DNA of 64,000 bases. It comes from an uncultured Gemmatimonadaceae bacterium (GTDB taxonomy: Bacteria; Gemmatimonadota; Gemmatimonadetes; Gemmatimonadales; Gemmatimonadaceae). The notes under the pieces are model-generated. The model saw only the letters and a list, made by a program, of their open reading frames with translations. It ran no database searches and had not been told where the DNA came from. The position numbers and the translations under genes were made by a program. Of this stretch, positions 467 through 64,000 are shown one piece after another (position 1 is the stretch's first letter; each line of letters opens with the position of its first letter). Location: contig CAWHHI010000003.1 of assembly GCA_963829055.1 (NCBI GenBank), positions 32,001 to 96,000 of the forward strand, read 5' to 3'.

Positions 467-2140
467 ATGCGCAATTCCAGCGGCACGAGCGGCGTGATTG
501 GGTGGGACATCGGCGGTGTGAACACGAAGGTCGCGCGTGTACAGCACGGTCGCGTACTCGTCGCGCATTCTCACCCGTATGAGATCCAGCGCGATCCGGC
601 CGCGCTCGGCCCTCTGCTCACGACGCTCGCCATGCAGGTCGAATCCACCGCGGGCGACCGGCACGCCGTGACGATGACCGCCGAGCTCTCGCAGATGTTC
701 CGGACGAAGCGAGATGGCGTGGCGTTCGTCCTCGATGCCGTCTCGTCCGCGTTTCCGTCGTCGGACATCCATGTCTACAGCGTCGACGGCCGCTTCCTCT
801 CCCCCGCCGACGCGCGATGCGAGCCGCTCGCCGTTGCGGCGTCCAATTGGGCCGCCACCGCCAGAGTGGTTGCCGCGAGCTACCCTAACGCGATTCTCAT
901 CGACATCGGCACCACCAGCACGGACATCATCCCGATCGAGGACGGAGAGGTCGTCGCCGTGGGAACGACTGACCCGGCGCGTCTCGCCAGCGGGGAGCTC
1001 GTGTACTCCGGCGCGCTTCGCACGGCAGTCGAGGCCATCACAGCGGTCGTCCCGCTCGGCGACACGACGGCAAGCGTGTCGGCCGAGGCGTTCGCGCTCG
1101 TCGGCGACGTCCATGTGTGGCGCGGCGATCTCGCGAGCGACGACTACTCGGTTCCGACTCCCGATGCGAGACCGACGTCGCGCGAGTTCGCCGGCGAGCG
1201 CATCGCCCGCATCGTGTGCGCTGACCGCGAGATGCTGGACGATCGCGCGATCTCCGCGATCGCCGACGCCGTCGCGAGCGCACAGGTGGACGTGATCAGC
1301 AGGGCGATCACACGCGTTCGCGCGCGTCACACGCGTCTCCACACCGCCGTCATCACGGGGCTCGGCTCCTTCATCGCCGCGCGCGCCGCTCGTCAGGCAG
1401 GACTCCACGTCGTTCGCCTAGCCGATTCCATGGGCGACGACGCGTCGCGGTGTGCCCCAGCCGCTGCCGTCGCGCTGCTGCTCGATGGCAGTCTGTCCCA
1501 CCATGCGCCAAGCGCACGGAGGCCGCGTACCACGCCACCTAACGTCGACAGGGCCACGTACCCGGGTATGGCGGACATGGTCGTCAAAGTCGGCGGCGCT
1601 CTGCTCGCCTACCCCACCCTGCTCGACGCCACGCTCCGCGGCATCATCGATGCCGGCACCGACGCGCGCATACTCATTGTCCCCGGCGGCGGTCCATTCG
1701 CCGACGCGGTTCGCGACGCCGATCGACGTATCCACCTCGCCGACGACACCGCGCACTGGATGGCGATACTCGCGATGGACCAGTACGCGCACCTGCTTGC
1801 CGCGCGCCATCCGAGCCTCGCCCTCGCCGTCACCATCGCCGAAGCCGAGGCGATACTGACGCAGCATCGAGTCCCGGTGCTCGCACCGTATCGCTGGCTG
1901 CGACAGGCAGACCCGCTACCGCACTCGTGGGACGTCACGAGCGACAGTATCAGCGCGTGGATCGCCGGAGCCGTCGGCGCTACTCATCTCGTGCTCGTCA
2001 AACCTCCAGGCGCGGATGTCAGCGCGGCGGTCGACCCCCAGTTCTCCCACACACTTCCGACCGGCATTTCGTCACTTACGGTCACGGCTGATGCGAGCGA
2101 TGCGCTCGTCGCGGCGCTGCGCGTCCCCGCGCGACGCTGA
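467..2140 (+). CDS. mfnF-mfnE: Fusion of hydantoinase/oxoprolinase-like MfnF (Orf9) and amino-acid-kinase-family MfnE (Orf21); methanofuran-type cofactor biosynthesis
   Basis: N-part: IGWDIGGVNTK, AVTMTAELSQMF, AASNWAATA, IDIGTTSTDIIP, GELVYSGALRT. C-part from ~1568: VVKVGG, IVPGGGPFADAVR, AHWMAILAMDQY, LPHSWDVTSDSISAW. Start placed at ATG 467. Confidence 0.8.
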   Translation: MRNSSGTSGVIGWDIGGVNTKVARVQHGRVLVAHSHPYEIQRDPAALGPLLTTLAMQVESTAGDRHAVTMTAELSQMFRTKRDGVAFVLDAVSSAFPSSDIHVYSVDGRFLSPADARCEPLAVAASNWAATARVVAASYPNAILIDIGTTSTDIIPIEDGEVVAVGTTDPARLASGELVYSGALRTAVEAITAVVPLGDTTASVSAEAFALVGDVHVWRGDLASDDYSVPTPDARPTSREFAGERIARIVCADREMLDDRAISAIADAVASAQVDVISRAITRVRARHTRLHTAVITGLGSFIAARAARQAGLHVVRLADSMGDDASRCAPAAAVALLLDGSLSHHAPSARRPRTTPPNVDRATYPGMADMVVKVGGALLAYPTLLDATLRGIIDAGTDARILIVPGGGPFADAVRDADRRIHLADDTAHWMAILAMDQYAHLLAARHPSLALAVTIAEAEAILTQHRVPVLAPYRWLRQADPLPHSWDVTSDSISAWIAGAVGATHLVLVKPPGADVSAAVDPQFSHTLPTGISSLTVTADASDALVAALRVPARR

Positions 2141-2830
2141 CGCCGTACGAAGCCCACGCACGAGATCGGCCGACACGCGTCCACTCCGCCCCCCGATGCA
2201 CGCGGCGCCGCGAACCCCCGCCACGTCCGCGCCGGCATCACGCACGCGACCGAGGTCGTCGACACCAAGCTTTCCGGCGACGGCGGCGATCAACTTGAGC
2301 CCGCGCGCTCGCCCCACCCAGGCGGAGAGCTCGATGCGCGACCATAGCGTGGTCAGCCCCGCACCCTCCTTGTCCGCCGTGTCGACCAGCACGCCTCGCG
2401 CACCCGCATGCGCCGCAATCGCGAGAAGCTTCGTCGCGTCGATGCTCGTTCCATGCTCGGCATCGGCGTACGCGACCGCGACGACGCCGCTCGCCGGATT
2501 GCCTCGCTCGCACCCGCGCACACACGCGACGATCAGCCGCTCGACACGGCGCGCATCGGCGATGCCGGCAAAGCCCACTTTGACGAGGCCGGCCCCGCTC
2601 GCCGAGTATTCAAATGCGAGACGCCCGATCGCGGTCTCATCGTGTGCGTCCCCGAGCGCCGCCGTCACGAGTCGAGCCGGAGGTGTCGCAGCGCGAATTT
2701 CACGCAAAACGTCCGGGCTCACGGCACCGAGCGCCCCCCGCGCCGGCTCTTTCGCATCTATCACGTCCGCACCACCCTCGGCCGCCGCGACCGCCTCGTC
2801 GGCGGACCGCACACTCACCAGAAGTCTCAT
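2072..2830 (-). CDS. mfnB: (5-formylfuran-3-yl)methyl phosphate synthase (4-HFC-P synthase, Orf22/DUF556)
   Basis: MRLLVSVRSADEAVAAAEGGADVIDAKEPARGALGA, LVDTADK, AGKLG, GVRGAACIGGR signature. Confidence 0.9.
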   Translation of the reverse strand: MRLLVSVRSADEAVAAAEGGADVIDAKEPARGALGAVSPDVLREIRAATPPARLVTAALGDAHDETAIGRLAFEYSASGAGLVKVGFAGIADARRVERLIVACVRGCERGNPASGVVAVAYADAEHGTSIDATKLLAIAAHAGARGVLVDTADKEGAGLTTLWSRIELSAWVGRARGLKLIAAVAGKLGVDDLGRVRDAGADVAGVRGAACIGGRSGRVSADLVRGLRTASASRGDAQRRDERIARISRDRK

Positions 2831-2902
2831 CGCGCCCTTCGCTCGAGGGTAAGGAACTCAGCGGCGATTGTAGGCGCCGAGCTACCCGCTGTCAAAGCCG
2901 TC

Positions 2903-3021
2903 GTCATTCCGAGCGGAGGCCCGCAGGCGGAGTCGAGGAATCGCGATTGTCCGCGATAGAGGGCCCTCTATCGGGACGATCGCGATTCCTCGACTCGCCT
3001 TCGGCCTCCGCTCGGAATGAC
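2903..3021. repeat. Palindromic GTCATYCCGAG-type repeat element (long hairpin)
   Basis: GTCATTCCGAGCGGAGGCC...GAGTCGAGGAATCGCGAT...ATCGCGATTCCTCGACTC...GGCCTCCGCTCGGAATGAC, a near-perfect 119-bp fold-back. Confidence 0.85.
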
Positions 3022-3086
3022 AAGCCTCGTTCATTGCTCGCGCTTCGCGCGCGAGACACTTTCCTCGCGTCACTCCACGGAGATCC

Positions 3087-3866
3087 TTGTTGGCGACGCC
3101 GAGCGCCCCCCCGTTGCTTGCCGGAATGCGTGTGCTCGTCACTGGTGCGTCCAGCGGAATCGGACGCGCCATCGCGATAGCGTCGGCCCGCGCCGGCGCC
3201 GACGTCGCGGTGACGTACCGGCTCAACGAGCGCGGCGCCCGCGACGTCGCCCGCGAAGTCGAGGCCATTGGCCGACGCGCCCGCGTGGTGCGCCTCGATC
3301 TCGGCGACGTCGCCTCCGTGAACGCCCTCGGCGGCGCCGTTCGCTCCGGCCTCGGTGGCGTGGACGCTTGGGTGAACAACGCCGGAGCCGACGTCCTCAC
3401 CGGTCCCGCCACGACCATGAGCGTGATGGAAAAGCTGGATCTGCTCATGCGCGTCGACCTGCGCGGCACCATGCTCGCGTCATGGCAGGCAGCCGAGCTC
3501 ATGGCAGCGCAGGACAAGGGCGGCGTTATCATCAACATGAGTTGGGACCACGTGCTCACGGGAATGCCGGGCGTCGAAGCACAGCTGTTCTCGGCCGTGA
3601 AGGGCGGCGTGTTGTCGTTCAGCAAGTCGCTCGCGCGTACCGTCGCGCCACGAGTACGCGTCAACGTGCTCGCACCCGGTTGGATCGAGACGGCATATGG
3701 CACCGAAGTCGACGAGACCATTCGGCGACAGGTCGTCGCGTCGACGCCGCTCGAGCGATGGGGAACGCCCGAGGATGTCGCGAGCGCAGCCGTCTATCTC
3801 GCATCGCCCGCAGCATCGTTCGTCACGGGCCAGACGATGCTCGTTGGCGGCGGCGTCGTGATGTGA
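3087..3866 (+). CDS. SDR family NAD(P)-dependent oxidoreductase, atypical (FxxxK in place of YxxxK)
   Basis: TGASSGIG, VNNAG, INMSWD, LFSAVK, VNVLAPGWIET, FVTGQ. Confidence 0.85.
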   Translation: MLATPSAPPLLAGMRVLVTGASSGIGRAIAIASARAGADVAVTYRLNERGARDVAREVEAIGRRARVVRLDLGDVASVNALGGAVRSGLGGVDAWVNNAGADVLTGPATTMSVMEKLDLLMRVDLRGTMLASWQAAELMAAQDKGGVIINMSWDHVLTGMPGVEAQLFSAVKGGVLSFSKSLARTVAPRVRVNVLAPGWIETAYGTEVDETIRRQVVASTPLERWGTPEDVASAAVYLASPAASFVTGQTMLVGGGVVM

Positions 3867-3934
3867 TCGATCTTGCCATTGAGCGCGCGCACTCCTGTCG
3901 CGGTTAGGCACGCAGCCACTCTCGGAGATTTGCC

Positions 3935-4297
3935 GTGTCCAAAAAAGAACCGACGTACGACGACGCCCAGATCGCGGAACAGCTCGCGACGCTCCCGGGC
4001 TGGTACTATGAGGACGGCTGGATTCGTCGCTACTACAAGACGGACGGCTGGCCCACGACGCTCATGCTCGTGAACGCCATCGGCTACGTAGCCGAGGCCG
4101 CGTACCACCACCCCGATCTTTCGGTGACGTGGGCGCGTGTGGGCGTGAAGCTCATGACGCACAGCGCTGGCGGCATCACGGAGAAGGACTTCGCGCTCGC
4201 GCGCCGCATCGAGGAGATCGTGCTCTGGCGCCCAGCGGAAGGCGGTGCGCTCACCGGCACGCCTAACAAGTTCGTCCGGAGCGGCGACCCGCGGTGA
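3935..4297 (+). CDS. pcbD: Pterin-4-alpha-carbinolamine dehydratase
   Basis: AEAAYHHPDL, THSAGGITEKDFALA motifs; GGAG RBS upstream. Confidence 0.9.
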   Translation: MSKKEPTYDDAQIAEQLATLPGWYYEDGWIRRYYKTDGWPTTLMLVNAIGYVAEAAYHHPDLSVTWARVGVKLMTHSAGGITEKDFALARRIEEIVLWRPAEGGALTGTPNKFVRSGDPR

Positions 4298-5712
4298 CCG
4301 AACGACCCGGCGCACCCCGCCGCATCCTGTTCGTCACCGGGAAGCTCGCGGAGCCGGCGCTGCGCCGTGTGCTGTCGGACATGTCGCCGTCGTTCACGTA
4401 CGACGTGTCGGTCCTTGGAATCACTGTCGCGGCGCTGATGACCACGACGTGGATTGCCCGTCACCTCGATGCGGTGCCTGACGACACGGATCTCGTGCTC
4501 ATCCCCGGGCTCTGCGAAGGCGATCCCGAGATCGTTCGCGAGAAGGTCGGACGTCGCGTCGAGAAGGGCCCCAAGGATCTCCGCGAGATCCCGAGGTATT
4601 TCGGCCACCAGCCACCGCGCGACTACGGCGCGTGGGACATTGAGATCGTCGCCGAGATCAACAACGTTCCGCGCCTCACGCGAGAGGCGACGCGTCGCGC
4701 CGCGGACTACTTCCGCGACTCAGGCGCGGATCTCATCGACATTGGGTGCACGCCCGGGCTTCCCTTCCCTCACCTCGCGGACGTCGTGCGCGAGCTCGTG
4801 TCCGCCGGCATGCGCGTGAGCATCGACAGCTTCGACGTCGACGAGATTCGCGCGGGCGTTGGCGCGGGCGCAGAGCTCGTGCTGAGCGTGAACAGCTCGA
4901 ACATCGACGTCGCACCGGATCTCGCTGCCGCAGCGGCACGAGCCGTCGTGGTGCCTGACGCCGGCGAGTCGTTCGAGAGCATCGACCGCACGATCGCAGA
5001 GCTCGATCGACTCGGCGTTCGATACCTGATCGACCCGGTGCTCGAGCCCATCGGCTTCGGCTTCATGGCGTCGCTGGAGCGCTACGCCGAGGCGCGACGA
5101 CGATATCCGGATGCCGAGTTGATGATGGGCATCGGCAACATCACGGAGCTCACTGCAGCCGACTCCACGGGTGTGAACGCGCTGCTCATCGCGATCTGCC
5201 AGGAGTTGGGCATTCGCACGGTGCTCACGACGGAAGTCATTCCGTGGGCTCGCGGCTCGGTGCGCGAGGTCGGCATCGCGCGGCAACTCATGCATCACGC
5301 GATCACCGCGCACACAATCCCGAAGCACCTGGACGATCGTCTCGTGACGATAAAGGATGCTGAGATCTTCGCGTACTCCGAGGACGAGCTTCGCGATCTG
5401 CAGCGCCGCATCACGGACCCGAACTTCCGCATCTTCACCGATCGCGATGTCATCACCGTGCTCAATCGCGAGCACTTCGTGCGCGGCACGGACATTCAGG
5501 ACATCTTCGCGCAGCTCGGCGTCACGGAAGCGACGCACGCCTTCTACCTCGGCAAGGAGCTCGCGAAAGCGAAGCTCGCGATCACACTCGGCAAGACCTA
5601 TCGGCAGGAAGGATCGTTGTCGTGGGGGTATCTCACGCCGCCGGACGACGTGAAGTCCGAGCACGTGCGGCTGACGCAGCGGTCGGCGCGAGCGGGCGAG
5701 CCGCTGCGATGA
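4294..5712 (+). CDS. Dihydropteroate synthase-related protein (Orf20-like, DUF6513 N-terminus), methanopterin biosynthesis
   Basis: LFVTGKLAEPAL, VAALMT, GPKDLRE, GADLIDIG, SIDSFD, GNITELTAADSTG, HAFYLGKELAKA; GTGA overlap with pcbD. Confidence 0.85.
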   Translation: MTERPGAPRRILFVTGKLAEPALRRVLSDMSPSFTYDVSVLGITVAALMTTTWIARHLDAVPDDTDLVLIPGLCEGDPEIVREKVGRRVEKGPKDLREIPRYFGHQPPRDYGAWDIEIVAEINNVPRLTREATRRAADYFRDSGADLIDIGCTPGLPFPHLADVVRELVSAGMRVSIDSFDVDEIRAGVGAGAELVLSVNSSNIDVAPDLAAAAARAVVVPDAGESFESIDRTIAELDRLGVRYLIDPVLEPIGFGFMASLERYAEARRRYPDAELMMGIGNITELTAADSTGVNALLIAICQELGIRTVLTTEVIPWARGSVREVGIARQLMHHAITAHTIPKHLDDRLVTIKDAEIFAYSEDELRDLQRRITDPNFRIFTDRDVITVLNREHFVRGTDIQDIFAQLGVTEATHAFYLGKELAKAKLAITLGKTYRQEGSLSWGYLTPPDDVKSEHVRLTQRSARAGEPLR

Positions 5713-6287
5713 TCATCGAGACCATCGTCACGACCATGGACGCCACCGGCGCGGTGAACATCGCTCCCATGGGCGTGGAGTGGGACGGCGGCGATGATCC
5801 GCCGGTACTCAAGCCGTTTCTCGAGACCACGACGTTCCGTAACGTGACCGCGACTGGCGTCGCCGTCGTGAACCTCGTGGACGACGTGCGCATCTTCGCG
5901 CGTGCGGCTATCTCGAACCCGGATTATCCCGTCGTGCCCGCCGTCGCTGTACGCGGCGTGTGCCTGGAGGCGGCGTGTTCGTGGCGTGAGCTGACGGTGC
6001 GCTCAATGGATAGCACCCCTCCGCGATCGCGCATCGAGACGACGATCGTGCACCGCGGCTTTCGGCGAGAGTTCATCGGCTTCAATCGAGCTCGTCACGC
6101 CGTGCTCGAGGCCGCGATCTACGCCACGCGCGTGCACATGCTCGACCGGTCGTTCATCGAAGCCGAGCTCGCGCGCCTACAGGTGATCGTCGACAAGACT
6201 GCCGGCCCAGCCGAGCATGAAGCGATGGCGCTCCTCACGGAATACGTGCGCTCCGCGCCAGGCACCCGTCCGTTGGCCAATCGTTAG
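5709..6287 (+). CDS. DUF447 family protein (Orf19-like)
   Basis: MIIETIVTT...NIAPMG...LKPF...FNRARHAVLEAAI..TR; ATGA overlap with the upstream gene. Confidence 0.85.
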   Translation: MIIETIVTTMDATGAVNIAPMGVEWDGGDDPPVLKPFLETTTFRNVTATGVAVVNLVDDVRIFARAAISNPDYPVVPAVAVRGVCLEAACSWRELTVRSMDSTPPRSRIETTIVHRGFRREFIGFNRARHAVLEAAIYATRVHMLDRSFIEAELARLQVIVDKTAGPAEHEAMALLTEYVRSAPGTRPLANR

Positions 6288-7328
6288 GTGAGCGGCGACA
6301 CCGTCACCGTCGAGGCTCCGGCGCGCCTGCACTTCGGACTGCTGGACCTCCGCGGCGCGTTAGGGAGGCGCTTCGGTGGCATCGGTGCACCGGCACCCGA
6401 GGTCAGCGCGCGCGTTTCCGTGTCGCTCGCGGATGACGTCGAAGCCGAGGGGCCGGACGCCGGCCGCGCGGTGGAGTTTGCGCGCCGGTTTCTGACGCAC
6501 CACGCGCTCGCCGGCGGTGCTCACGTCCAGGTCGAGCGAGCCATCCCACCACATTCGGGGCTCGGATCCGGAACGCAGCTCGCGTTGTCGATCGCGCGCG
6601 CGTTGGCCGATCTGCATGACGTGAGGGCAACACCACCGGACCTGGCGCGAGCCGTCGGACGCGCGAAGCGATCGGCGGTAGGCACGTGGACGTTCGCCGG
6701 TGGCGGGTTCGTGGTCGAGGGTGGGCGACGCATGGATCAGAACGACGACACCGGCCCGCTGCTCGCGCGCCTCGCGTTTCCGACCGCCTGGCGTTGTGTC
6801 GTAGCGGTACCGAAAGCGCAACCCGGTGTCAGCGGTGCCGCGGAGGCTGAGGCGTTCGCGTCACTGCCATTGCCGGCCGAGCGTGAGGTGGAGCGCGTGT
6901 CGCATCTCGTGCTCATGGCCATGTTGCCCGCGCTCGCCGACGGTGACCTCTCGACATTCGGCGCGGCGCTCACCGAGGTGCAGGAGATCAACGGACGCTG
7001 GTTCTCTCACGCGCAGGGCGGCACGTTCGCGCCGGGCGCGTCGAGCGCCCTCGTGACGCGCATGCGCGAGTGGGGCGCGGCCGGCGTTGGCCAGAGCTCG
7101 TGGGGACCCGCGGTGTACGCGATCGTCGACGGCGATGACGCGGCGCACGACCTCTCGCGCCGCGTGCGTGACGCGGTGGGCGACGGCGGCGCGGTCTACA
7201 CGGGTGCGTTTCCTCCGCATGGCGCGACGTGTCGTCCCGAGCGCAGCAGCCGTCATCCCGGGCGCCAGGGATTGTCATCCCGAGCGCAGCGAAGCGACAG
7301 CGAGGGATCTTCCGTGAAGTACCCATAG
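6288..7328 (+). CDS. mptG: Beta-ribofuranosylaminobenzene 5'-phosphate synthase (GHMP kinase fold)
   Basis: APARLHFGLLDL, RRFGGIG, IPPHSGLGSGTQLAL, RSAVG..TFAGGGFVVEGG, GQSSWGP. Confidence 0.92.
   Translation: MSGDTVTVEAPARLHFGLLDLRGALGRRFGGIGAPAPEVSARVSVSLADDVEAEGPDAGRAVEFARRFLTHHALAGGAHVQVERAIPPHSGLGSGTQLALSIARALADLHDVRATPPDLARAVGRAKRSAVGTWTFAGGGFVVEGGRRMDQNDDTGPLLARLAFPTAWRCVVAVPKAQPGVSGAAEAEAFASLPLPAEREVERVSHLVLMAMLPALADGDLSTFGAALTEVQEINGRWFSHAQGGTFAPGASSALVTRMREWGAAGVGQSSWGPAVYAIVDGDDAAHDLSRRVRDAVGDGGAVYTGAFPPHGATCRPERSSRHPGRQGLSSRAQRSDSEGSSVKYP
7230..7310. repeat. Partial copies of the GTCATCCCGAG repeat inside the mptG 3' end
   Basis: TGTCGTCCCGAGCGCAGC (7230), CGTCATCCCG (7251), TGTCATCCCGAGCGCAGC...CGAGGGATCT (7273-7310); match the left arm of the element at 22013. 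Confidence 0.7.
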
Positions 7329-7571
7329 CCGACGCCGCGGAAAGACGTTAGGCATTGGTCCGATTGCTGCTGACTGTCGGCCATTGTCGCCGGTCATTAC
7401 TTCCGTCGCGGCGGTCATTCCGTCCTCGCAGGCTGGCGACCATTTCGCGCGTGGGTTCCGTCACCGCGCGACGCCGTGCCGTGGGCGACCGTAAGCATGA
7501 TGCCCGGATCGGCACCACACGGCGGCGCTCCACCGGTCCCGGCCTAACGTGTACCCACGGTCGGAGAGACC

Positions 7572-9241
7572 ATGCTTCCTATCTCGTCATCAACCCCTGC
7601 GCGCCGGTCAGACGATCGCGGCGTTACTCTCTGCGCGTCACGTCTCCCGCTGCGTCCCGCTGCTGTTCGTGCTCGCGGCATGCAGTGACGGCGGCATCGT
7701 CGAGCCACCGGCCAGCGTTGTGCGCGGCAGCCCGGCTCATGCCGCGGTCGTCGTGACGCCTGACTACTCCACGTTCGACACGCGCGCTGAGTTCGCGGCG
7801 GCTGGCGTGGTCGATCAGCTGAACGGCTTCGACGAATTCACCGGTGACCCCGTGTACCCGCAATCCACACCGTGGACGACGCATGGCGTGACCTACACGT
7901 CGGCGCCGAACTTCGTGTTCGGCCCCGGTGTCGGCCTCGGCGTCTCGAGCAACGCCGTGTCCACCGAGTTCGGCGCGCCACTATCGGGCACGTTCGCCTC
8001 GGCCGACGCCGTCACCCTGTTCGGCGCCGACATGAGTCTCATCGTCACGGCGGCGCCAGTGAAGCTCGTGCTGTCCACCAATCTGAGGACGTACACGTTC
8101 GACAATCTCGACATTCCGCTCGCCGACGTCGGTCGACGCTTCTTCGGCGTCGCGCTTTCGACACCTGGCGAGTATCTCACCGGATTTCGGTTCGTGGTCG
8201 GCCCGGCGTCGACGCTGCTCCTCGACAACGTTGCCATCGGCCACACCGGTGTGCCAAACGCCCCTCCCGTAGCAACGGCTGGCGGGTCATACACTGGTCA
8301 GGAAGGATCGGCGGTTGCGCTCTCGCTGAGCGGCAGCGACAGGGACGCCGACGCCCTCACGTTTTCGTGGGATCTGGGCGACGGCACCAAGGGCTCGGGA
8401 GCAACTCCTCCGTCGAGCCACGTGTACGTGAACGATGGATCGTACGCCATCACGCTCGCGGTCTCCGATAGCCGCGGTGGCGTCGACACTGCACGCACCA
8501 CAGCCGCGATCTCGAACGTCGCGCCGGTTCTCGCTCCGTTCTCGGTGCAGGCCGCTCCGCTGGCGCTCACGGCCGGCGGCGTGACGCTCTCGGTCTCCGC
8601 CACGTTCACCGATGTCGGCGTCGCCGACGCCCATACCGCCACGCTCGACTGCGGCGTCGGAGCTGTTGCTCCCGCCATCGGCGCCTAACGGGACCGTCGG
8701 TGGCACGTGCCTGTTCACGACCCCGGGCGTCTATACCATCCAACTGACCGTGCGCGACGACGGAGGCGGTAGCGACACGCGATTCGCGACAGGTCAGGCG
8801 GTGGTGTACGACGCGAGCGCCGGGTGGGTGACCGGCGGCGGGTGGATCGCGTCGCCAGTAGGAGCCTACGCTGCGGCTCCGGCGCTGACCGGCAAGCTGA
8901 CGTTCGGCTTTGTGGCGCGCTATCAGTCGTCGACCACGCCGGGTGGGAACGCGGAGTTCAAGCTGAACCTTGGGAAGCTCAGTTTCCGAAGCAGTGCACT
9001 GGACTGGCTGGTGGTCGCCGGGAACACGGCCCAGCTACGGGGCCGCGGTATGATGAACGGTGGCGGCGACTACGCGTTCGAAGTCCTCGCGGTCGATGAT
9101 TCACCAGGTGATGGGGCCCGCATCCGCATCTGGGATCGCACGACGGGCGCGGTCGTCTATGACAACCAGAGGGGCGAACCGCTCGACGCCGGCGCCGTCA
9201 CGGCGCTCGGTGGCGGCAGCATTCAACTCCATCAGCGGTAG
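7572..9241 (+). CDS. PKD-domain lipoprotein (frameshifted near 7.6 kb and ~8.67 kb)
   Basis: Lipobox LLFVLAAC; PKD motifs NAPPVATAGGSY, FSWDLGDG, HVYVNDGSY; continuation frame PGVYTIQLTVRDD...VTGGGWI...TFGFVARY. Confidence 0.7.
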
Positions 9242-52049: not shown

Positions 52050-52347
52050 TGCATCTTGCGTCACTGCCGCGTTAGGTGTGAGCGACGTCACGCGCGTCGT
52101 GAAGCGCGGGATGGTGGGGGCGTTCGACACCGAGCATCACGCGCTTGGACCTCTGCCATACCGATGGCGATCTGCACTAGGTCGTGTTTGCCGGCAAGCC
52201 GGTTGAAGACGAGTTGAGTGCGTGGAATTCGAAGCAACGATCGCGAACGGCTGAGGCACGTGTATTGACTTGCTTCTGGGTCGCGAAACCTGTCGACGCT
52301 GTCGTCGCGGGTTGACGAGAGGCCCACCAGAAGGAGTCGAACGCCGG

Positions 52348-53816: not shown

Positions 53817-54001
53817 GCGATCCGACACGTCCGTCCAATCCTGCATAACGAATCGAGGCCGCCTGACTCAGGCGGCCTCTCCGTTTTCGCGCACGAACCG
53901 ACCACATCGTCAACGAGATCGCCGTATGCTCGGTGCGCTTGTGAGCGCCCCAGCCGATGCCCATACTGGGGGCTTCCGACTGTCACCCAGTGAGTCATCC
54001 A

Positions 54002-54655
54002 ATGCGCGTCACGCCTCTCGAGCCGTCAGCCCCGTCATCACCCGCGCACAGCCCGAGGCGCGCGTTCGTCGCCCGACTCGCTGGCGTGATCGCGACGTGG
54101 CCGTTCGTTGGCAGCCGACTCGGCGCCATCGTGGCGAGCCGATTCGGCATCATGCCGGCCAGCGAGCGCGAGCCTAACGCCAGCCTGCTCGACGCGCTAG
54201 GCGACGCGGTATTGCCCGCGGAGCTCGGACCGTCGGGGATGACTCGCGCAGTCGGCGCGTTTCAGCAGTGGATGGACGAGTATCGGCCCGGAGCGGAGGC
54301 CAACCACGGGTACGGCACTGGCCGTATAGAGAGCGTGCCGGCCGACCCGCGGCCGCACTGGCGAGATCAGCTCGCCGCGCTCGACTCCGCCGCTCGGCGC
54401 GAGGGCGCTTCGTTCGCTCGCCTCTCCCGCGAGCGCCGTCAGGCACTGGTGCGTACGGCGCTCGCGGGAGAGCGCGGCGAGTCGCTGCCGTCGCCGCTCG
54501 CGGCGCGTCACGTCGCGGTCGCGCTGCTCGCACACTTCTACGACTCGCCCGCGGCCACAGATCTCTGTTACGAAGCGGAGATCGGCCGGCAGCAGTGCCG
54601 TCCACTGGCCGCGCAGACCCAGAAACCGGTGGCGCTCGCGCGGAGGGGCCGATGA
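54002..54655 (+). CDS. Gluconate 2-dehydrogenase subunit-3-like protein (Tat-type signal)
   Basis: SPRRAFV; DAVLP; FARLS.ERR; FYDSP; ATGA overlap with the GMC gene. Confidence 0.65.
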   Translation: MRVTPLEPSAPSSPAHSPRRAFVARLAGVIATWPFVGSRLGAIVASRFGIMPASEREPNASLLDALGDAVLPAELGPSGMTRAVGAFQQWMDEYRPGAEANHGYGTGRIESVPADPRPHWRDQLAALDSAARREGASFARLSRERRQALVRTALAGERGESLPSPLAARHVAVALLAHFYDSPAATDLCYEAEIGRQQCRPLAAQTQKPVALARRGR

Positions 54656-56286
54656 CGCTCGTTAGGCTCCAGGGCCGACCAGAGGTGATCGAGAGCGACA
54701 TCTGCATCATCGGCTCGGGGATCACCGCGGCGATGGTCGCGGAGAAGCTGGCGGAGGAGCGGCAGGCGCGGATCGTCGTCGTGGAGGCGGGCGATGACAC
54801 CGTGCCACTCCCCGAGCGTGCGGCGAACCGGGCGAGGTTTGTCGCCTACGGCGAGAACCCGTGGGGACGCGACCACATCGACGGCATGACCGCCGAAGGG
54901 ATTCAGTCGCGGTCGATGCAGGTCGGTGGGCTGGCCATGCACTGGGGCGGTGTCACGCCGCGGTTCTCGCCGGAGGACTTCCGCGTGAAGTCGCTGTACG
55001 GCGTCGGCCACGACTGGCCGGTGAGCTACGACGAGTTCGAGCCGTTCTATCAGGAAGCCGAGCAGCGGATCGGTGTGGCGGGCGAGCAGGGGCCGACGGA
55101 GTTGGATCCGCGGTCCAAGCCGTTTCCGATGCCGGCACTGCCGCTGACGTACAACCTCGAGAAGCTCAAGGGCTGGACGGACGCTGCCGGCATCGCGATG
55201 TGGAGTCAGCCGTCGGCGAAGAACTCGGTTGCGTACCGCGGTCGGGCGGTCTGCTGCCGGAACGATACCTGTTCGCCGGTGTGTCCGGTCGGCGCCAAGT
55301 ATTCGCCGGACTTCACGTGGAGCGCGCTCAAGGCGTCGAAGCGCGTCGAGCTCGTGACACGGACGCTCGTTAGGCGACTGGTCGTCGAACCCGGGTCGAA
55401 CCGGGTCGTGCGTGCGGAGGCGGTGCGTCGTGATCGTGGCGGTGCTGCCGGTGCGCCGGTGGAATTCAGGGCGAAGACGTTCGTCGTCGCCGCCGGGTAC
55501 GCGTGGAGCCCGCATCTGCTGTTGCTGTCACGAAGCGCGCGCTTCCCGAACGGGCTCGCCAATCGGTCGGGCACGGTCGGGAAGTACATGACCGGACATC
55601 GGAACGTGTCCGCGTTCGTGAAGCTTCCCATGCGCCTGTATCCGGGAATGAACGAGCAGCACAGTCTCGTCACGAAGCAGTTCATGCGGCCCGGAAAGCT
55701 CGATCGGTACATGCGTCACGATCTGCGGGTGTGGGAGTCGAGCGTTGGTCGGCGTCCGCGTCTCAAGGGCGATGACGGTGGCGTGCTGCTCGGCGATGAC
55801 CTACTCGGCGATTGGCGGCGGCGCAGTATCGAGGGCACGGCGCGTGTGCGGGCCTACTACGACGTGATTCCCGATCGCGAGAGCGCGCTCACGCTCAATG
55901 AAGCTGCGTCGAACCAGTACGGCGATCCGCAGCCGAAGCTGACGTTCCGTGACAGCGCCGAGTCGGCGGCGGTGCGCGGGCATACGGAGGATTCGATCAA
56001 GGCCCTGTTCCAGCGGATGGCGCGTGCTGGTAACGGCGAGATCATCCGAACGGCGGTCGACGACTTTCAGGATCATCCGGCCGGCGGGTGTCGCATGGGT
56101 GATGATCCCGCGACGAGCGTGGTGGATAGCCACGGGCGCGCGCACGATCACGAGAACCTGTTCGTGGTTGGCGCGCCGACGAGCGTGAGCGGTGGCTGTG
56201 CGAACGCGACGTTGACGTTTCTGGCGGTCGCGCTGCGTCAGGCGACGGCGATCGGGCAGGCGTTTCCGGCGCGGCGGTCGACATGA
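54652..56286 (+). CDS. GMC family FAD oxidoreductase
   Basis: IIGSGITA, VGGLAMHWGG, CSPVCPVGAKY, HPAGGCRMG, HDHENLFVVG. Confidence 0.9.
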   Translation: MTLVRLQGRPEVIESDICIIGSGITAAMVAEKLAEERQARIVVVEAGDDTVPLPERAANRARFVAYGENPWGRDHIDGMTAEGIQSRSMQVGGLAMHWGGVTPRFSPEDFRVKSLYGVGHDWPVSYDEFEPFYQEAEQRIGVAGEQGPTELDPRSKPFPMPALPLTYNLEKLKGWTDAAGIAMWSQPSAKNSVAYRGRAVCCRNDTCSPVCPVGAKYSPDFTWSALKASKRVELVTRTLVRRLVVEPGSNRVVRAEAVRRDRGGAAGAPVEFRAKTFVVAAGYAWSPHLLLLSRSARFPNGLANRSGTVGKYMTGHRNVSAFVKLPMRLYPGMNEQHSLVTKQFMRPGKLDRYMRHDLRVWESSVGRRPRLKGDDGGVLLGDDLLGDWRRRSIEGTARVRAYYDVIPDRESALTLNEAASNQYGDPQPKLTFRDSAESAAVRGHTEDSIKALFQRMARAGNGEIIRTAVDDFQDHPAGGCRMGDDPATSVVDSHGRAHDHENLFVVGAPTSVSGGCANATLTFLAVALRQATAIGQAFPARRST

Positions 56287-56331
56287 TCGGGAATCGGGAA
56301 TGGGGAATCGGGAATCGGCGGCGGCGGCAAC

Positions 56332-58341
56332 ATGTCCCTTGGCGCGGGCACGGTCGCGATCTGGCACTTCGGCGCTGGTAACGGGCTGCGCACCATCGTC
56401 CGGCAGCCAGGCGGCGCCTCAGGACAGCCTCGACGGCTCCGTCTCCGCGAACGGCCTCGGCCGGAGCCGACCGGAAGCCTAACGAGTGGCCGGTGTACGG
56501 CGGAGATGCCGGCGGGCTCAAATACTCGCCGCTCACGACGATCGACCGGTCGAACGTCGCTCGACTCGCCGTCGCGTGGACGTGGAAGACCGGCGAGCAG
56601 GCAATTCCCGCGAGCGGCACGACGCTCGCTGCGCGCCCGGGACAGTTCCAGGTAACGCCGCTCGCGATCGGCGATACGCTCTATCTCAGCACGCCGTTCA
56701 ATCGCGTCGTCGCGCTCGACGCGGCGACAGGGCGCGAGTACTGGTCGTACGATCCAAAAGCGTATGAGGCCGGTCAGCCGTCGAACGGTACCGGCTTCGT
56801 TCACCGTGGCGTCGCGACGTGGACCGATGGTAAGGAGCGGCGGATTCTCATCGCGAGCCGCTGGCGATTGATCGCGCTCGACGCGGCGACCGGCAAACCG
56901 ATTCCGACGTTCGGCACGAATGGCGAGGTCGATCTCACGGCGAACATCCTGTGGAGCGTCGAGCGAAAGCACTACACGAACACGTCGCCGCCGGTCGTCT
57001 ACGGCGACCTCGTGATCGTCGGCAACGGAGTCGGCGACCGGCTCGTGTACAAGCGCGATCCCCCAGGCGACATCCAGGCGTTCGACGTTCGCACGGGCCG
57101 TCGGGTGTGGCGTTTCAATCCCATTCCGCAACCGGGCGAGTACGGCAACGAGACGTGGGAGGACAGCTCGTGGTCGCGCATGGGACACACGAACGTATGG
57201 GCGCCGTTCACCGTCGACGTTAGGCGGGGGCTCGTGTACCTCCCGTTCGGTACGCCGAGCAACGACTGGTACGGCGGTGAGCGACACGGGCGACAATCTG
57301 TTCGCCGAGTCGATCGTGTGTCTCGATGCGAAGACGGGGCGGCGCGTGTGGCACTATCAGATCACGCACCACGGCCTGTGGGACTACGACCTGCCGTCGC
57401 CGCCGGTGCTGGCGACGATCCACAAGGATGGCCGCGCGATCGACATCGTCGCGGTCGTCACCAAGCAGGGATGGGTGTTCGTGTTCGATCGCGTGACGGG
57501 ACAGCCCATCTGGCCGATCCAGGAGCGCGCTGTGCCGGCGAGCAGTGTTCCGGGTGAACGCGCGGCGGCGACGCAGCCCTTTCCGACGAAGCCGCCGCCG
57601 TTCGCGAAGCAGGGATTCACGGAGGACGATGTCATCGACTTCACGCCCGAGGTGAAGCGGCTCGCGCTGGCGGAGATCCGTCAGTATCGCACGGGGCCCT
57701 TGTACACGCCGCCGTCGCTCGAGGGGACGATCGTGATGCCGGGCGCGATCGGGGGTGGCGGATGGGGCGGCGGCGCGTTCGATCCCGCGACGGGCATGTT
57801 GTACGTGAAGGCGACGAACAATCCGGCGCTGTTCAAGCTGTTCCCGGTGGAGAGCCCGTCGGACACCGTGCAGGCACGGTACATGGTGGAGCTGGGTCGC
57901 GCGTTAGGCGCGCGAGCGCCCGCGACGGAGACGAGCGAGCGGACGGCGGAGCTTCCGGTGCACAAGCCGCCCTACGGCACGCTGACGGCCATCGATCTCA
58001 ACCGCGGCGAGCAGCTCTGGCAAGTCCCACTCGGCGACGAGCCGTCGATCCGGAATCATCCGTTGCTCCGGGGCGTGACGCTTCCGCCGTTGTTAGGCGT
58101 GCGCGGTGCGCCGGGACCGATCGTGACGGCGAGTGGGCTTCTGTTCGTGACTGGAGGCGGTCAGGTGCTGTACGCGATCGACTCGCGTGACGGTCGGACG
58201 CTCTGGCAGCACGACTTCGGCCGCGTGGCGTATTCCGTGCCCATGACGTACGCGACGCGGGATGGTCGGCAGTTCGTGGTGGTCGCGACAGGATCTGGGG
58301 CGAATGCGGAGCTGGTGGCGTTCTCCGTTGCTGCTCGCTGA
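56332..58341 (+). CDS. PQQ-dependent dehydrogenase (quinoprotein glucose dehydrogenase-like; frameshifted)
   Basis: YGGDAGGLKYSPL, FQVTPL, HRGVATW, HHGLWDYD, WGGGAFDP, PPYGTLTAIDL; start approximate. Confidence 0.85.
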
Positions 58342-58584: not shown

Positions 58585-58696
58585 CGTTCGTCGTTGTTGT
58601 TTGTTCTCAGCTGCGGCGGACGGTCGCTCGCGTTAGGTGACACGAAACGCGCGGGGATCAGGTGCGCTGATCCGCTCGTTCGTTCAGGCGGTCATG

Positions 58697-60017: not shown

Positions 60018-60332
60018 GAAGTCTCCGGGCGGGGTGGTCGATCCGAGACCGGTATCGGCATCGCGCTACCGGCTCGCGTGAGCGGGGAACATCCACTCGT
60101 TAGGCCACGGTTCTGGCAGCGTTGCGTCGCGACTGTGTCAAGAACCGGTTTCGAACGTGACCGTGCGTGACCGCGGCAGTGGTTGGACATCACGCCCGTC
60201 TGGCGCCGGGACTCCTTCCACGCCCTTCACCGTGCCAGCGAGGTCCTTGGCCGCTCGCGCGCACGTGACGGCACGGGCATTGATGCCAATGGCCTTTCGT
60301 CGCACGCCTCAGCTTCTCCAGCTCCCCGTCGT

Positions 60333-61466
60333 ATGGACTCCCCAACCCGCCAACCTCCCGCATCGCTCGGCGCCACTACGGCTTACGCCGCGATAACAGC
60401 AGCCGGGGGCGCCGTACCCGCGGGACGCGCATCGGTTCGGGTCCTCATCGCCTCGGTCATCGCGATGGTCATCGTCGCCGCTGGCGTAGCGATAGATCTG
60501 TCGTCGCGGCCCGCGCTCGCCGCCTCGCCGCTGCGCACGACCGCACGCGCGTCACGGCACGTGTCGGTCGACACGCTGCCGCGCACCTGGATCGAGATGA
60601 AGAACGTCGACCTCCGCATCGCGACCGACGCTGTCGTCGGAATTCGTCAGCTCCGCGGCGAGGTCATTCCCGCGGAACGCGGCAGCAGCGCGATCCTCGA
60701 CAGCACCAGCTCGTTCGCGATACGCATCACGTCAGGCACGGTGGCGATCCAGAGCGCGGACCTGAGCGTGATTCTCAACAAGTTCGTGTTCGGCTACAAA
60801 GGCTCGCCGCTCAAGCATCTGCACGTTCGCATGGCCGGCGCGCAGATGGTGCAGTCGGGGGTCATGCACAAAGGAGTCGACATCAAGTTCGAGATCACGT
60901 CGTCGCTCTCGCTCACGGACAGTGGCTTCATTCGCCTGCACCCGACGAAGGTGCGTGTGTTAGGCGTGAACGGGGAGTCGCTGCTGCACGCGCTGGGAAT
61001 GAAGCTGGATGACCTGCTCGATCTGAGCGGGTCGAAAGCGGCCCGGGTGAAGGGCGACGAGATCTTCCTGGACCCGACGAAGATCCTGCCACCGCCGGCA
61101 ATCGATGGACGCCTAACGTCTGTCCGCGTCGAGGGAGACGCTCTGGTGCAGGAGTTCGCGCGGCTGCCTGACGATTCGTTGTTCACAGGCTATGCGCGCC
61201 CCGACTCGACGGCGCCGAACTACCTGTTCTTCCGTGGGGGCCGCCTGCGATTCGGACGCCTCGAGATGCGTGACACGCAGCTGCAGATCCTCGATCTCGA
61301 CCCGTCCGACCCGTTCGACCTCTATCTGGCCGAGTACAACAAGCAGCTGGTGGCGGGCTATTCGCGAAATCGGCCGAATCTCTCACTGCAGGCGTTCTTT
61401 CCCGATTTCCCGGATATCGGTCGTGGGGTAACGCCACCCATCGCGAGACTGCCTAACGTGCCGTGA
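60333..61466 (+). CDS. Hypothetical membrane-anchored protein
   Basis: Long ORF with GC-type codon usage and an N-terminal hydrophobic segment VLIASVIAMVIVAAGVAI; start uncertain. Confidence 0.65.
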   Translation: MDSPTRQPPASLGATTAYAAITAAGGAVPAGRASVRVLIASVIAMVIVAAGVAIDLSSRPALAASPLRTTARASRHVSVDTLPRTWIEMKNVDLRIATDAVVGIRQLRGEVIPAERGSSAILDSTSSFAIRITSGTVAIQSADLSVILNKFVFGYKGSPLKHLHVRMAGAQMVQSGVMHKGVDIKFEITSSLSLTDSGFIRLHPTKVRVLGVNGESLLHALGMKLDDLLDLSGSKAARVKGDEIFLDPTKILPPPAIDGRLTSVRVEGDALVQEFARLPDDSLFTGYARPDSTAPNYLFFRGGRLRFGRLEMRDTQLQILDLDPSDPFDLYLAEYNKQLVAGYSRNRPNLSLQAFFPDFPDIGRGVTPPIARLPNVP

Positions 61467-61826
61467 TCGATCGCGGTCATAACCTCCAGACGGACTGCTT
61501 CGACACGCCATCCAGAACGACGGTGTTTCCAGAAAAAGCCGGAAACAACTGAAACGGCCCGATCCGATCGCGACCGGGACAGATCGTGGCGCGGGGCCCG
61601 TTTGAAAGGGGACGGCCTAGGACACTGCGTCCCAGGCCGTCCCCTTCCATCACGGCTCGTGGAGTGCCGGCACGGACCGCGATCGGTTTCCGGCCGTTTC
61701 CGTTCACACCCTCGGTTCTGGATGCCTCCCAACAGCATCTCAGACGAAGGGTGAGCGGATGCTGCGGATCCAGCGGATTGGTTCCGTTGCGGCCGTGTCA
61801 TCCCGAGCGACGGCTCGGCCACCACA

Positions 61827-64000
61827 TCACTTCCGCGCCCCCAACTCGGCAGCACCGAGGCTCACCACGTCATCCGCCGCAGTGACCAGCGTTTCCAGCT
61901 GACGACTCAACCGCTTCAGGCGCGCGCGGACGACTGGATCCAATGTCGCAGTCGCCGTGTCCAAATCATGATCGGTCGCCATCGGCGACCCGCGCACGAC
62001 GTCGGCACCGCCGGCGACGGCGGTGAGCCGCGCGGCCGCCTCGTCGAGCCGCGTGGTCGTGCGCTCCGAGAATCGCTCGAGCACGTGCGCAGTCGAGGGG
62101 TCCACCGCATGACGACTCACCGCGAGCGCCGCCGTCGACACGGTGAAACGGCGCACGTACGTGAGGAACGTCATCACCGGCGCAAGCGCCCCGACGGAAC
62201 CACCGTGCTCCCCCAACAGCCGCTGGAACGATTCCTCGGCGTTGATGGCCGCCAACGCCGCCTGACGCCGACGCTCGCGCATGAGGTGGCCGGCCGCATC
62301 ACTCCGATCGGCGAAGATGCTGACGACCGTACGGAGGTAGTCGCGATTCGCCCGCAACGCGGCCGCCATGTACGACGGCAGCCGCGCCCATTCCGGAGCG
62401 GGCCACAGTAACCGCGCGCCTAACAACGCGAGCACGCCGCCGAGCAGCGTGTTGGTCACACGAACGCCCGCCAGGTGCCAGTCTCCCGCGCTCGCCTCCG
62501 CGAGCAGAACGAACGTCGGTGTGAGGAACGCCGAGAACGCGGTGTAGCTGATCGGGAGTACGGCGACGCTCACGGCCGCGAAGATGAACGACAACACGAG
62601 AATCGCGCGCACGTCGTGGAACAGCGCACCGAGTGCGGCCGTGAGAATGCCTCCGACGATCGTGCCGAGCACGCGCTGCATCGCCTTGACCGTCGTGACA
62701 CCGGTGTACGGCTGCAGGATGATGACCGCCGTGATGGTGACCCAGTAGCCGCGCGAGAGGTGAAGCGCGCCGGTCAGCCAGACCGCTCCGGCGGTCACGA
62801 TAGCCACACGTAGCGCATGACGCAGCACGAGCGAGTCGCGATCGAGCACGGAGCGCAGCGGCGCCATCAGCGCGACGGGCTCTACGAGCTCCTCGGCCTC
62901 GGGGATGACGACCGGCCACTCGGCGGTCGTGCCGTCGAGCGCCGCGACGTTCGCGGCAGCGACGCTGGCGAACTGCGCGATCCGATCGAGCAGCGCGGCG
63001 GCGTGCGCATACTGCGCCGTCACGTAGTTCGCTTCGCCGGTCCGGTCCAGACTTCCGCCGGTGTTCGCGGGCAGTGGCGTTAGGCTGGCCAGTAGGGGCG
63101 CCCCCGAAAACTGCACGGTCGAGGTGCCGGTCTGACGCTCCTCCTCCACACGGTCGGCCAGGCTCGCGGAGCACCCGGACCACATCACGGAGCGCGGTGA
63201 CGATGATGACACGGCGGTCGCGATCGCGTGCCGAGGGTGGGATCGCCTCGATGGATTCCACGAGCGCGATCAGGTTGCCGAACATCTGGTCGGCCGTCTC
63301 GCGCAGCACGATCAGGCGTTCGCCGCGCCCGCTTTCGCCCGATCGACCGCGTCGAATCGTGGCGAGCGTCGCGCGCGCGTGCTCCAGCGCCGCGCGAACG
63401 GTGAGGCTGCCGGCGGGCAGGTCATCATCGCCCAGGTGTTCGGACGCGAGCGCGTCGATGACGTGCGCCACGTGGTCGCGCAAGTTTCCGGAACGCGTCC
63501 GCGACGGCGAGCCGAGCCGGCCGATATGGGCGAATCGGCCAGAGGACGAGTGCGATCAGTGCGGCCCACACACCTCCAATGATCGTGTAACCGGAGCGAC
63601 CGAGCGCTTCGGCGAACGTCGCCGCCGGATAGGCGAGCGAGATGACGAACATGTTCAGCACGGACCCACCGACGATCGCGCCGTTGTTCCCCCATGCGCG
63701 CCCGAGCGAACAGACGAGCGCGACCGCAAATGTCAGCACGACCGCGGTCGTGAGGGTGTGCAATGCGCCCCCACCGACGAACACGGCAATGGCACCGAAC
63801 GCCGTGAGCGACGCGATGGTGACGGCGCGCGAATCGTAGGCGCCGCCTTTGTCGGCTAGCGCGCCACTGAATCCGGCGAGGCTCATCCACGTGCCACCGC
63901 TGAGGTGGAACACCTGCGCGACCAGGAGCGGTACGACGGTAGCGAGCGCGGCGCGAAATCCCGCCGCGTACGCTGGACGTGCCTTCGCCACAGCCGTCGC
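61827..64000 (-). CDS. FUSC/YccS-YhfK family membrane protein (frameshifted; 5' end near or beyond the window end)
   Basis: RHALRVA, RGYWVTITAVIILQP, QRVLGTIVG, RVTNTLLG, LLWP; N-terminal LWPIRPYRP. Confidence 0.82.

Follow-up and report, generated by a model that had tools for sequence, protein, structure and literature searches.

The question raised by a 64,000-nucleotide stretch of an uncultured Gemmatimonadaceae genome (positions 32001-96000 of contig C3 in assembly G000, GCA_963829055.1; hereafter the window) is why one short, non-palindromic word recurs in it about once per kilobase. Assembly G000 comprises 7,784,024 bases on 20 contigs, with a GC content of 66.7% and a completeness of 86%. 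An exact count of the window resulted in 59 hexamers CCTAAC/GTTAGG, 28 on the forward (+) and 31 on the reverse (-) strand, which agrees with the number, orientation and coordinates obtained by hand in a preliminary description of this DNA; its division into 51 CCTAACG, 7 CCTAACA and 1 CCTAACC was also reproduced exactly. The description had roughly estimated an expectation of about 7 CCTAACG. Dinucleotide-preserving shuffles of the window, counted for all CCTAAC, gave a mean of 6.72 (sd 2.62, maximum 17), and none of the 100 shuffles reached 59. The neighbouring words were as scarce as had been stated: GCTAAC was found 4 times, TCTAAC twice, ACTAAC, CCTAAG and CCTAAA once each, and CCTAAT was absent. 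Read as 8-mers, the hexamers of the window were 37 GCCTAACG, 9 ACCTAACG, 7 GCCTAACA, 5 CCCTAACG and 1 GCCTAACC.

In the whole of G000, 7103 CCTAAC were counted, 6391 of them as CCTAACG, and the core was present on all 20 contigs at 0.75-1.22 per kb. In the position table of these sites, 79% had a G immediately before the core (-1) and 90% one directly after it (+6), and the flanks beyond -2 and +7 carried less than 0.2 bit. Since these two bases dominate and the further flanks are nearly uninformative, the unit was taken to be the 8-mer GCCTAACG; the loose form of the word is RCCTAACR. The core of the previously proposed motif CCTAACR was thereby borne out, and its extent turned out to be too short. 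On both strands together, 5004 copies of GCCTAACG were detected, compared with 297, 131, 102 and 258 expected from Markov models of orders 0, 1, 2 and 3, respectively, which corresponds to a 19- to 49-fold excess and makes it the top-ranked 8-mer of the genome. The copies were divided into 2457 forward and 2547 reverse, and the word differs from its own reverse complement. The minor forms ACCTAACG, GCCTAACA and CCCTAACG were found at 13-, 10- and 5-fold expectation. Neighbours which keep CTAA and have a broken core were at 0.2-0.4 of expectation, as in a word-poor genome (relatives were classed as word-rich when the 8-mer reached at least twice the reversed-word control), and words with CTAA are generally scarce to this degree in these genomes; GCCTGACG and GCCGAACG were at 2.4 and 1.47 times expectation.

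Two simple explanations were rejected at this stage. A longer repeat or mobile element is ruled out by the uninformative flanks, and a restriction-modification target should be avoided by its host or be neutral, whereas the word is enriched 20- to 50-fold. In a literature search, no description of GCCTAACG, CGTTAGGC, CCTAACG, CGTTAGG, GTTAGGC or GCCTAAC was found in the relevant papers, in line with the earlier remark that no system was known for this motif. Separately from the word, TTAA (0.15 of expectation) and CTAG (0.22) were strongly avoided in G000, GTAC was enriched 1.9-fold, and GCATAACG was enriched 4.4-fold without explanation.

The preliminary description had proposed that the signal resides in the DNA and not in the protein, and the distribution of the word over genes supports this. 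The analysis relied on rough calls of 6765 genes. These span 73% of the DNA, the assembly has frameshifts, and all genic and intergenic shares are therefore approximate. Codon shuffles which preserved the amino acids and the per-gene codon usage (20 runs) resulted in 362 in-gene CCTAAC and 188 GTTAGG, compared with the observed 2098 and 2395. For the 8-mer, the observed and shuffled numbers were 1493 and 100 in one orientation and 1704 and 50 in the other; in total, 3197 in-gene copies stood against about 151, so that the ratio stayed at approximately 21-fold, and not near 1, under this control. Each of the four stop-free frames, on either strand, contained the core, and so did spacers and stop codons. 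The frame counts were 1869 for xCG-TTA-GGC (antisense strand), 1312 for CCT-AAC, 785 for xxC-CTA-ACG and 525 for GTT-AGG, and a further 2612 cores were located outside the called genes.

The use of rare codons by the motif, which had also been pointed out earlier, was pronounced: 1869 of the 2765 TTA codons of G000 lie inside the word. CCT-AAC accounted for 39% of Pro-Asn dipeptides. Leu-Gly was encoded with TTA in 19.5% of cases after a G-ending codon and in 0.1-0.3% after an A-, C- or T-ending one, and Leu-Thr with CTA reached 22.4% after a C-ending codon. Stop codons were supplied as well, with 319 of 857 TAA occurring as CC-TAA-C and 234 of 1752 TAG as GT-TAG-G. The DUF447 gene of the window (5709-6284) is such a case, already noticed in the preliminary description, with the core at 6283-6288 (-) forming GT-TAG-G on the + strand. 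The density of the word followed no trend across the codon-score quintiles of G000 and did not drop in the best-scoring genes, and avoidance of the word in well-adapted genes was dismissed on this ground.

Chi and FtsK-orienting polar sequences (KOPS) are 8-mers over-represented in the core genome, which serve as marks on a cell's own DNA and are strongly polar to replication. The word resembles them as an over-represented 8-mer and a possible mark read on own DNA. It differs from them in a far larger excess and in its orientation, as the intergenic sites of G000 were split 524 to 493 relative to the leading strand. No replication polarity was detected either in 50-kb bins on four contigs or in the leading-strand test, and a polarity of the Chi/KOPS type, against which the lack of strand bias in the window had been taken to argue, is ruled out by the bins and by this split. 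The spacing of the sites is more even than chance. Gaps shorter than 200 bp were observed at 0.18-0.59 of the Poisson/exponential expectation and gaps of 400-1500 bp at 1.2-1.4, and the coefficient of variation of the gaps was 0.89 with gaps above 10 kb excluded.

The origin of the sites was studied in codon alignments of rpoB and rpoC from 20 genomes; rpoB served as the orthologue probe in place of a protein of the tetrahydromethanopterin (H4MPT) cluster of the window, the first gene of which was found in 7 of 25 related genomes. The rpoB/rpoC sites of G000, G004, G005 and G014 lie on conserved residues and differ from the other genomes by synonymous point changes, and a few sites at variable positions accompany an amino acid change. 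The changes were xCG-CTC-GGC to xCG-TTA-GGC, CCG-AAC to CCT-AAC, GGC-CTC-ACG to GGC-CTA-ACG and GTG-CGG to GTT-AGG. No indels were tied to the word at any site of these alignments. In the 5.8-9.7 kb rpoB/rpoC region, 12 of the 20 genomes had no hexamer, G000 had 9 and G014 had 26.

The retention of 23 window sites was determined against five genomes of the same genus (G001-G005), with 79-81% nucleotide identity over the aligned parts. The hexamer was kept in 46 of 82 site-genome pairs (35-71% per genome), compared with 27-31% for all hexamer windows, the relatives not being independent of one another; the conservation at orthologous sites that had been asked of relatives is thus seen in the genus. 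The cores at 56478-56483 (+) and 57903-57908 (-) were present in all five relatives and the one at 58092-58097 (-) in four of the five. Those at 45558-45563 (+, GCCTAACG), 45831-45836 (+, GCCTAACA) and 60959-60964 (-) were kept in G001, G002 and G005, that at 51278-51283 (+) in G001-G004, that at 52071-52076 (-) in G001, G002, G003 and G005, and that at 54173-54178 (+) in G002-G004. Two relatives each had the cores at 49766-49771 (+, CCCTAACG) and 61112-61117 (+; both G002 and G005), 55369-55374 (-; G003 and G004), and 62419-62424 (+) and 63079-63084 (-; both G001 and G005). The core at 57219-57224 (-) was absent in all five relatives, the one at 47828-47833 (-) was absent from the four aligned, and at 54661-54666 (-) the relatives mostly had CGTCAGGC. 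The sites also turn over within the genus, and the commonest orthologous alternatives were the one-step neighbours CGTCAGGC and GCCGAACG.

An artefact of long-read metagenome assembly or base calling had to be considered, as G000 does contain indel errors. Its rpoB is split at C19:51343-51350, window genes for an amidohydrolase, a MacB/FtsX permease, an ABC permease and a glycoamylase are split (13037-14367, 18232-20968, 32895-34649 and 35978-36875, respectively), and at 53968, 56434 and 57292 one base is absent in independent contigs of two to three public runs. The word itself was found in other assemblies, a comparison for which the preliminary description had asked. Six other genomes of the genus, in 260-1170 contigs each, hold 2500-5100 copies apiece, and for window positions 50001-58000, half or more of the sampled words were recovered in 18 runs (14 studies) out of the 24 public ones listed. 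In Logan contigs of four public runs, each from a different study, window sites are likewise spelled identically; contigs of run X1, for instance, span the sites at 51118-51123 (-), 52031-52036 (+) and 52071 without a mismatch. Of the differences between the window and independent contigs, 40 were listed (194 more exist beyond these), and none of the 40 falls in a core hexamer. The residues encoded at the sites fit conserved positions of homologues. Since independent assemblies carry the same sites, the word is not an artefact, and the chance that it is one can be regarded as negligible.

The word was abundant in a part of the relatives. Among 40 relatives, 13 were word-rich, including all six of the genus, G014 (6360 8-mers and 10,682 hexamers in 5.1 Mb) and, at lower levels, G010, G019, G020, G036, G038 and G040. 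When 300 more genomes of the phylum were sampled, word-rich members numbered 9 of 69 in the same family (f1) and 2 of 125 in a sister family (f2), and none of the 103 genomes from outside the order exceeded its own control. Genomes G013, G086, G125 and G204 of the survey tables are unpublished, and no result depends on them. The same 8-mer was detected in several genera with graded density. In 200 kb of G305, 161 copies were counted against 2.7 expected, and 200 kb of the word-poor G008 contained one copy; no other hyper-abundant word was found in these 200 kb, CCTAAC was there as rare as its neighbours, and the replacement of the word by a different one in this relative was dismissed. Copy numbers differ even between members of one genus: G241 and G298 contain about 4000 apiece, G294 only 66, and in the shared 2.2 kb of rpoB (85.6% identity) none of the 5 sites of G241 is present in G294. 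Some rpoB sites are common to nearly all rich lineages. The trait is patchy within one order, and in the survey it did not appear in other classes of the phylum. A search for related loci with the penicillin amidase resulted in homologues of 42-55% identity, none of them from a word-rich genome.

Three blocks of 31-48 kb in G000 have no copy of the word: C6:6854-55038, C6:591809-623330 and C11:7377-44055. All of them are at or near contig ends; the GC content of the two C6 blocks is 70-73% and that of the C11 block 66%, and their genes include the housekeeping genes for chorismate synthase, DAHP synthase, GreA and glutamine synthetase. These blocks are likely chimeric joins or large foreign segments.

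A link between the word and integrons appeared in the word-poor genomes G027 and G025, in which most copies lie on one strand, 0.4-1.3 kb apart. There the word starts a repeat of about 90 nt with the ends GCCTAAC-G and T-GTTAGGC. The folded structure predicted from 17 copies is a hairpin with bulged bases, and compensatory changes support 8 of its 27 pairs. Judged by these features, the repeats are integron attC sites with the word as the R box. According to PMC3053210, the attC inverse core and core are RYYYAAC and GTTRRRY, and the word fits both. G000 itself encodes an integron integrase (C20:208041-208958; 265.7 bits, just above the TIGR02249 cut-off) with a short cassette array on the 3' side of its gene (C20, approximately 190-207 kb), the attC sites of which begin with GCCTAACG, and an inverted GTTAGGCGGC...GCCGCCTAAC pair follows directly after the integrase gene. 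The word is thus identical in sequence to the attC core site, GCCTAAC-G being the R'' end and T-GTTAGGC the R' end in all three genomes. This identity, which like the carriage of the word by phages had been missed in the preliminary description, is real; a chance match of the 7-mer core would be about 1 in 8000. A second integrase-like fragment was observed at C4:2862-3170, beside small open reading frames (ORFs) in 4.4 kb without the word (C4:1-4400), and same-strand runs of GCCTAACG with 0.3-1.1 kb spacing in G147, G097, G101 and G091 resemble the attC arrays of G027 and G025.

From this identity it could be argued that the genome-wide sites are integron products, i.e. decayed attC sites, scars of cassette insertion at attG sites or landing pads for cassettes. 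The attC arrays of G027, G025 and G000 use exactly the word, and integrases can insert cassettes at genomic GWT sites (bioRxiv 10.1101/2022.09.11.507474). Published attG sites, however, require just GWT. The genome-wide sites are solitary half-sites without partner arm, L boxes or cassette, located within housekeeping genes. In G000, a CCTAAC with a GTTAGG after it at no more than 160 bp was counted 90 times, compared with 122, 103 and 94 for the other three arrangements; this lack of an inverted-pair excess, together with the uninformative flanks, shows that they are no attC sites, and the attC hairpin, 57-141 nt long and built from paired R''-L''...L'-R' arms, was present only at the C20 array of G000 and in G027 and G025. 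As the sites arise without indels, cassette insertion cannot make them, and the activity of the integrase itself does not write the genome-wide sites. Matches to integron integrase (IntI; E up to 1e-40) were obtained in 29 of 41 genomes, word-rich and word-poor alike, and the IntI profile was dismissed as a discriminator. An attC or attG origin is nearly refuted by the rpoB/rpoC alignments and the pair counts, and is considered highly improbable.

Proteins which could modify or read the word were searched for as well. No match to PF00145 (C5), PF03852 (Vsr), PF01555 (N6_N4) or PF02384 (N6_Mtase) was obtained in a profile search of G000, a genome of 86% completeness. A motif IV regular-expression screen resulted in 52 ORFs, and among the 5 scanned against Pfam, a single DNA-methyltransferase-like ORF was found, a D12-like gene (C8:134573-135439), which 20 of 31 genomes have, irrespective of whether they are rich or poor in the word. 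A type IIG-like methyltransferase gene (MmeI/Eco57I-like), followed by an SNF2 helicase, is located at C8:73494-78300 (L214:5495-10315) and is split over three frames. With its first part (519-aa query), matches were found in 39 of 41 genomes of the order, mostly as ORFs of 1000-1200 aa with 33-76% identity; the gene appears unusually conserved for a restriction-type gene, and it was rejected as word-linked, since its presence in rich and poor genomes leaves no presence/absence link. None of the methyltransferase and competence genes tested tracked the word density.

These searches bear on the explanation that the word has no function and is made from near-matches by a mutation or repair bias, such as a very short patch (VSP)-like mismatch correction or another templated correction. 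It would account for the substitution-only origin of the sites, for the sharing of the word by phages and its lack in foreign-looking blocks, and for the fact that the commonest orthologous alternatives are single-step neighbours. A methylation or VSP ratchet was nevertheless rejected, as the C5, Vsr, N6_N4 and N6 families were not found in the searched, 86% complete genome and the D12-like gene does not track the word. In addition, the single-mismatch neighbours of the core were not directionally depleted (the values for GCCTGACG, GCCGAACG and the CTAA neighbours are given above), the change from CTC or CTG to TTA needs two steps, and the paucity of close pairs is not predicted by such a bias. 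Mainly because of the even spacing and the missing methyltransferase and Vsr, repair bias fails as an explanation, and it is regarded as improbable, if less so than an integron origin.

The size of the excess matches what is seen only for self-tags, and GCCTAACG is tentatively interpreted, by analogy and with a probability of roughly 0.4, as a genome-wide self-tag of the kind of the DNA uptake sequence (DUS), the uptake signal sequence (USS) and the highly iterated palindrome HIP1, driven by biased acquisition of tagged DNA and subsequent recombination. Biased acquisition as the driving force is an inference, with which the observed substitution-only origin, equal use of the two orientations, even spacing, retention above background, restriction to a clade and lack of the word in foreign-looking blocks are consistent. 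In the proposed sequence of events, the DNA-handling machinery would favour word-bearing DNA at uptake or just after entry, before recombination; alleles which spell the word by point mutation would spread through the population by homologous recombination, and would then be kept against codon preference wherever the protein permits. Given the identity of the word with the attC R box, recognition of DNA by the reader may have a common basis with integron recombination, or the tag may additionally allow cassettes to be accepted as self.

DUS of the Neisseriaceae and USS of the Pasteurellaceae are short, non-palindromic, clade-restricted words present about once per kb in both orientations and shared, with dialects, by a whole family; competent cells favour DNA with the word at uptake, and in Neisseria ComP is the word-specific receptor. 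The word shares with them the density of about 1 per kb, the lack of a palindrome, both orientations, the point changes in genes, the even spacing, the clade restriction and the absence from foreign-looking blocks. It differs in being patchy within an order rather than family-wide, in the lack of terminator-type pairs, in being carried by phages at host density and in coinciding with an integron core site. HIP1, for which a periodicity of 10-90 kb has been reported, is palindromic and is recognised by two known methyltransferases, whereas the word is asymmetric and no cognate methyltransferase was found in G000. In PMC5861425 and PMC13756078, HIP1 (GCGATCGC) is, like the word, an octamer which is tens-fold over-represented in genes and spacers, spread by substitution, conserved and polyphyletic; the former text gives a 15- to 300-fold over-representation and conservation, and the latter now proposes HIP1 as an uptake tag. 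The kinship with HIP1 or uptake sequences rather than with polar signals, as had been suggested from the window, is supported by the excess, both orientations, the substitution origin and the retention.

Several observations weigh against the self-tag interpretation. An uptake and transformation preference in the clade is itself a proposal by analogy. The transformation machinery encoded in G000 (ComEC, DprA, an HHH_3 protein and a secretin) agrees with a self-tag, but it does not discriminate: ComEC was found in 31 of 32 genomes and secretin in all 32, whether the word is abundant in them or not, and the patchiness is left unexplained by these two genes. A quick rpoB tree requires 5 state changes, at least 4 gains or losses being forced by well-supported branches. 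Inverted pairs of the Neisseria terminator type were not in excess (the 90 within 160 bp mentioned above), and an arbitrary uptake preference does not predict the identity with the integron R box. Finally, tailed-phage contigs carry 1.2-2.5 hexamers per kb inside portal, terminase and scaffold genes. Because phage DNA is injected into cells, the word in phages is easier to reconcile with an intracellular reader than with an uptake receptor, unless these phages exist mostly as prophages; one of them, L255, does have an integrase.

The viral contigs had been picked by two copies of the word 400-430 bases apart, a choice which favours word-rich contigs. L301, a contig of 16,975 bases with genes for a major head protein, a scaffold, a portal and the two terminase subunits, contains 43 hexamers, which occupy every frame and either strand and of which 31 are full 8-mers. 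Its ORFs account for 27 of the 43, whereas 200 codon shuffles gave 3 on average and at most 8. L255, L262, L279 and L252 have phage genes (in L255 integrase, primase, helicase, holin and tail spike) and 1.2-1.8 hexamers per kb. In two further viral contigs of about 42% GC, L238 and L261 (118 and 199 kb), TCCCATCGCCTAACGGC was observed on one strand just upstream of many small genes with ribosome-binding sites. This sequence resembles a promoter or regulatory repeat of phages in which the same 8-mer occurs by chance, and is a separate phenomenon.

The phages lend weight to a second, functional explanation, according to which the word is the recognition site of a protein acting on resident DNA inside the cell. 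Direct selection would then keep about one site per 0.4-1 kb, and phages would copy the tag to pass as self. Candidates are proteins which organise the nucleoid or handle the chromosome, nucleases or defence systems which spare DNA with the tag in either orientation, and a relative of the integron integrase or another reader of R-box half-sites. The phage contigs at or above host density, such as L301, agree with this, and so do the even spacing, the retention above background and the lack of a density drop in the genes with the best codon scores. The word corresponds to the attC R'' box with the next base and GCCTAACA, the second commonest variant, to the R' side, and the same word in separate branches of the order is easily explained by a conserved reading protein. 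On the other side, IntI is equally frequent in rich and poor genomes, the abundant site-specific signals known from other chromosomes either have polarity (Chi, KOPS) or are palindromes while the word has neither property, and the phage contigs, being chosen by the two-copy pattern, give no measure of how common such contigs are among phages. Since phages carry the word and the exact integron word recurs in separate branches, an internal reader is given real weight, although it is judged somewhat unlikely.

The remaining cores of the window were established by exact matching of the 6-base CCTAAC. Those on the + strand are located at 884-889, 1538-1543, 4262-4267, 7543-7548, 8684-8689, 13420-13425, 14581-14586, 15367-15372, 16980-16985 (within the APH-family gene 16389-17495), 17589-17594, 18210-18215, 20098-20103, 21209-21214, 21688-21693, 23571-23576, 28273-28278, 28615-28620, 30472-30477 and 61452-61457. 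The corresponding cores on the - strand are at 3903-3908, 6359-6364, 7347-7352, 9924-9929, 18852-18857, 19500-19505, 22757-22762, 23786-23791, 31258-31263, 31586-31591, 32167-32172, 32839-32844, 36167-36172, 37215-37220, 39046-39051, 40476-40481, 40598-40603, 46716-46721, 58632-58637 and 60099-60104.

The H4MPT-linked C1 cluster of the window (419-7325) consists of genes for a Hydantoinase_A/AA_kinase fusion, 4-(hydroxymethyl)-2-furancarboxaldehyde phosphate (4-HFC-P) synthase, a pterin dehydratase, a DUF6513/pterin-binding protein, DUF447 and a GHMP kinase, and is accessory, given that its first gene occurs in just the 7 of 25 relatives mentioned above. A tandem array of heptamers (GGGAATC-like units) was observed at 56287-56317, just past a gene ending at 56283. 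In the bin 56142-56408, the summed contig depth rose from about 10 to 800-1560 in runs X1, X4 and X8 and to about 30 in X2, and many metagenome contigs break at the array; from the depth and the breaks, the array is considered to be a widely repeated element. Related 9-mers, e.g. AATCGGGAA, were about 2-fold enriched across G000. Rfam and tRNA scans of the window gave no matches.

That the word matches the integron core and is copied by phages offers two new approaches to the older question of whether such words are uptake tags, internal self-marks or by-products of repair. Rich and poor genomes coexist in a single family and, in the case of G241 and G298 compared with G294, in a single genus, which constitutes a natural experiment for finding the reader. 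The word is also usable as a watermark, which flags foreign or chimeric stretches in assemblies of the clade and points phages to their hosts. It is conceivable, if rather unlikely, that tag and integron are one system, in which the core site was turned into a genome-wide self mark read by an integrase-related or cassette-recognising protein. Cassettes, having the word at both attC ends, would in that case be accepted as own DNA, the host chromosome and the phages would have been rewritten to carry the same mark, the arrival of separate branches of the order at exactly the same word would be explained, and integron biology would be joined to uptake-tag biology. To our knowledge, hyper-abundant self-tags are known only from a few groups, the Neisseriaceae, the Pasteurellaceae and the cyanobacteria, and the word would add to these an abundant and little-studied soil lineage, the Gemmatimonadota.

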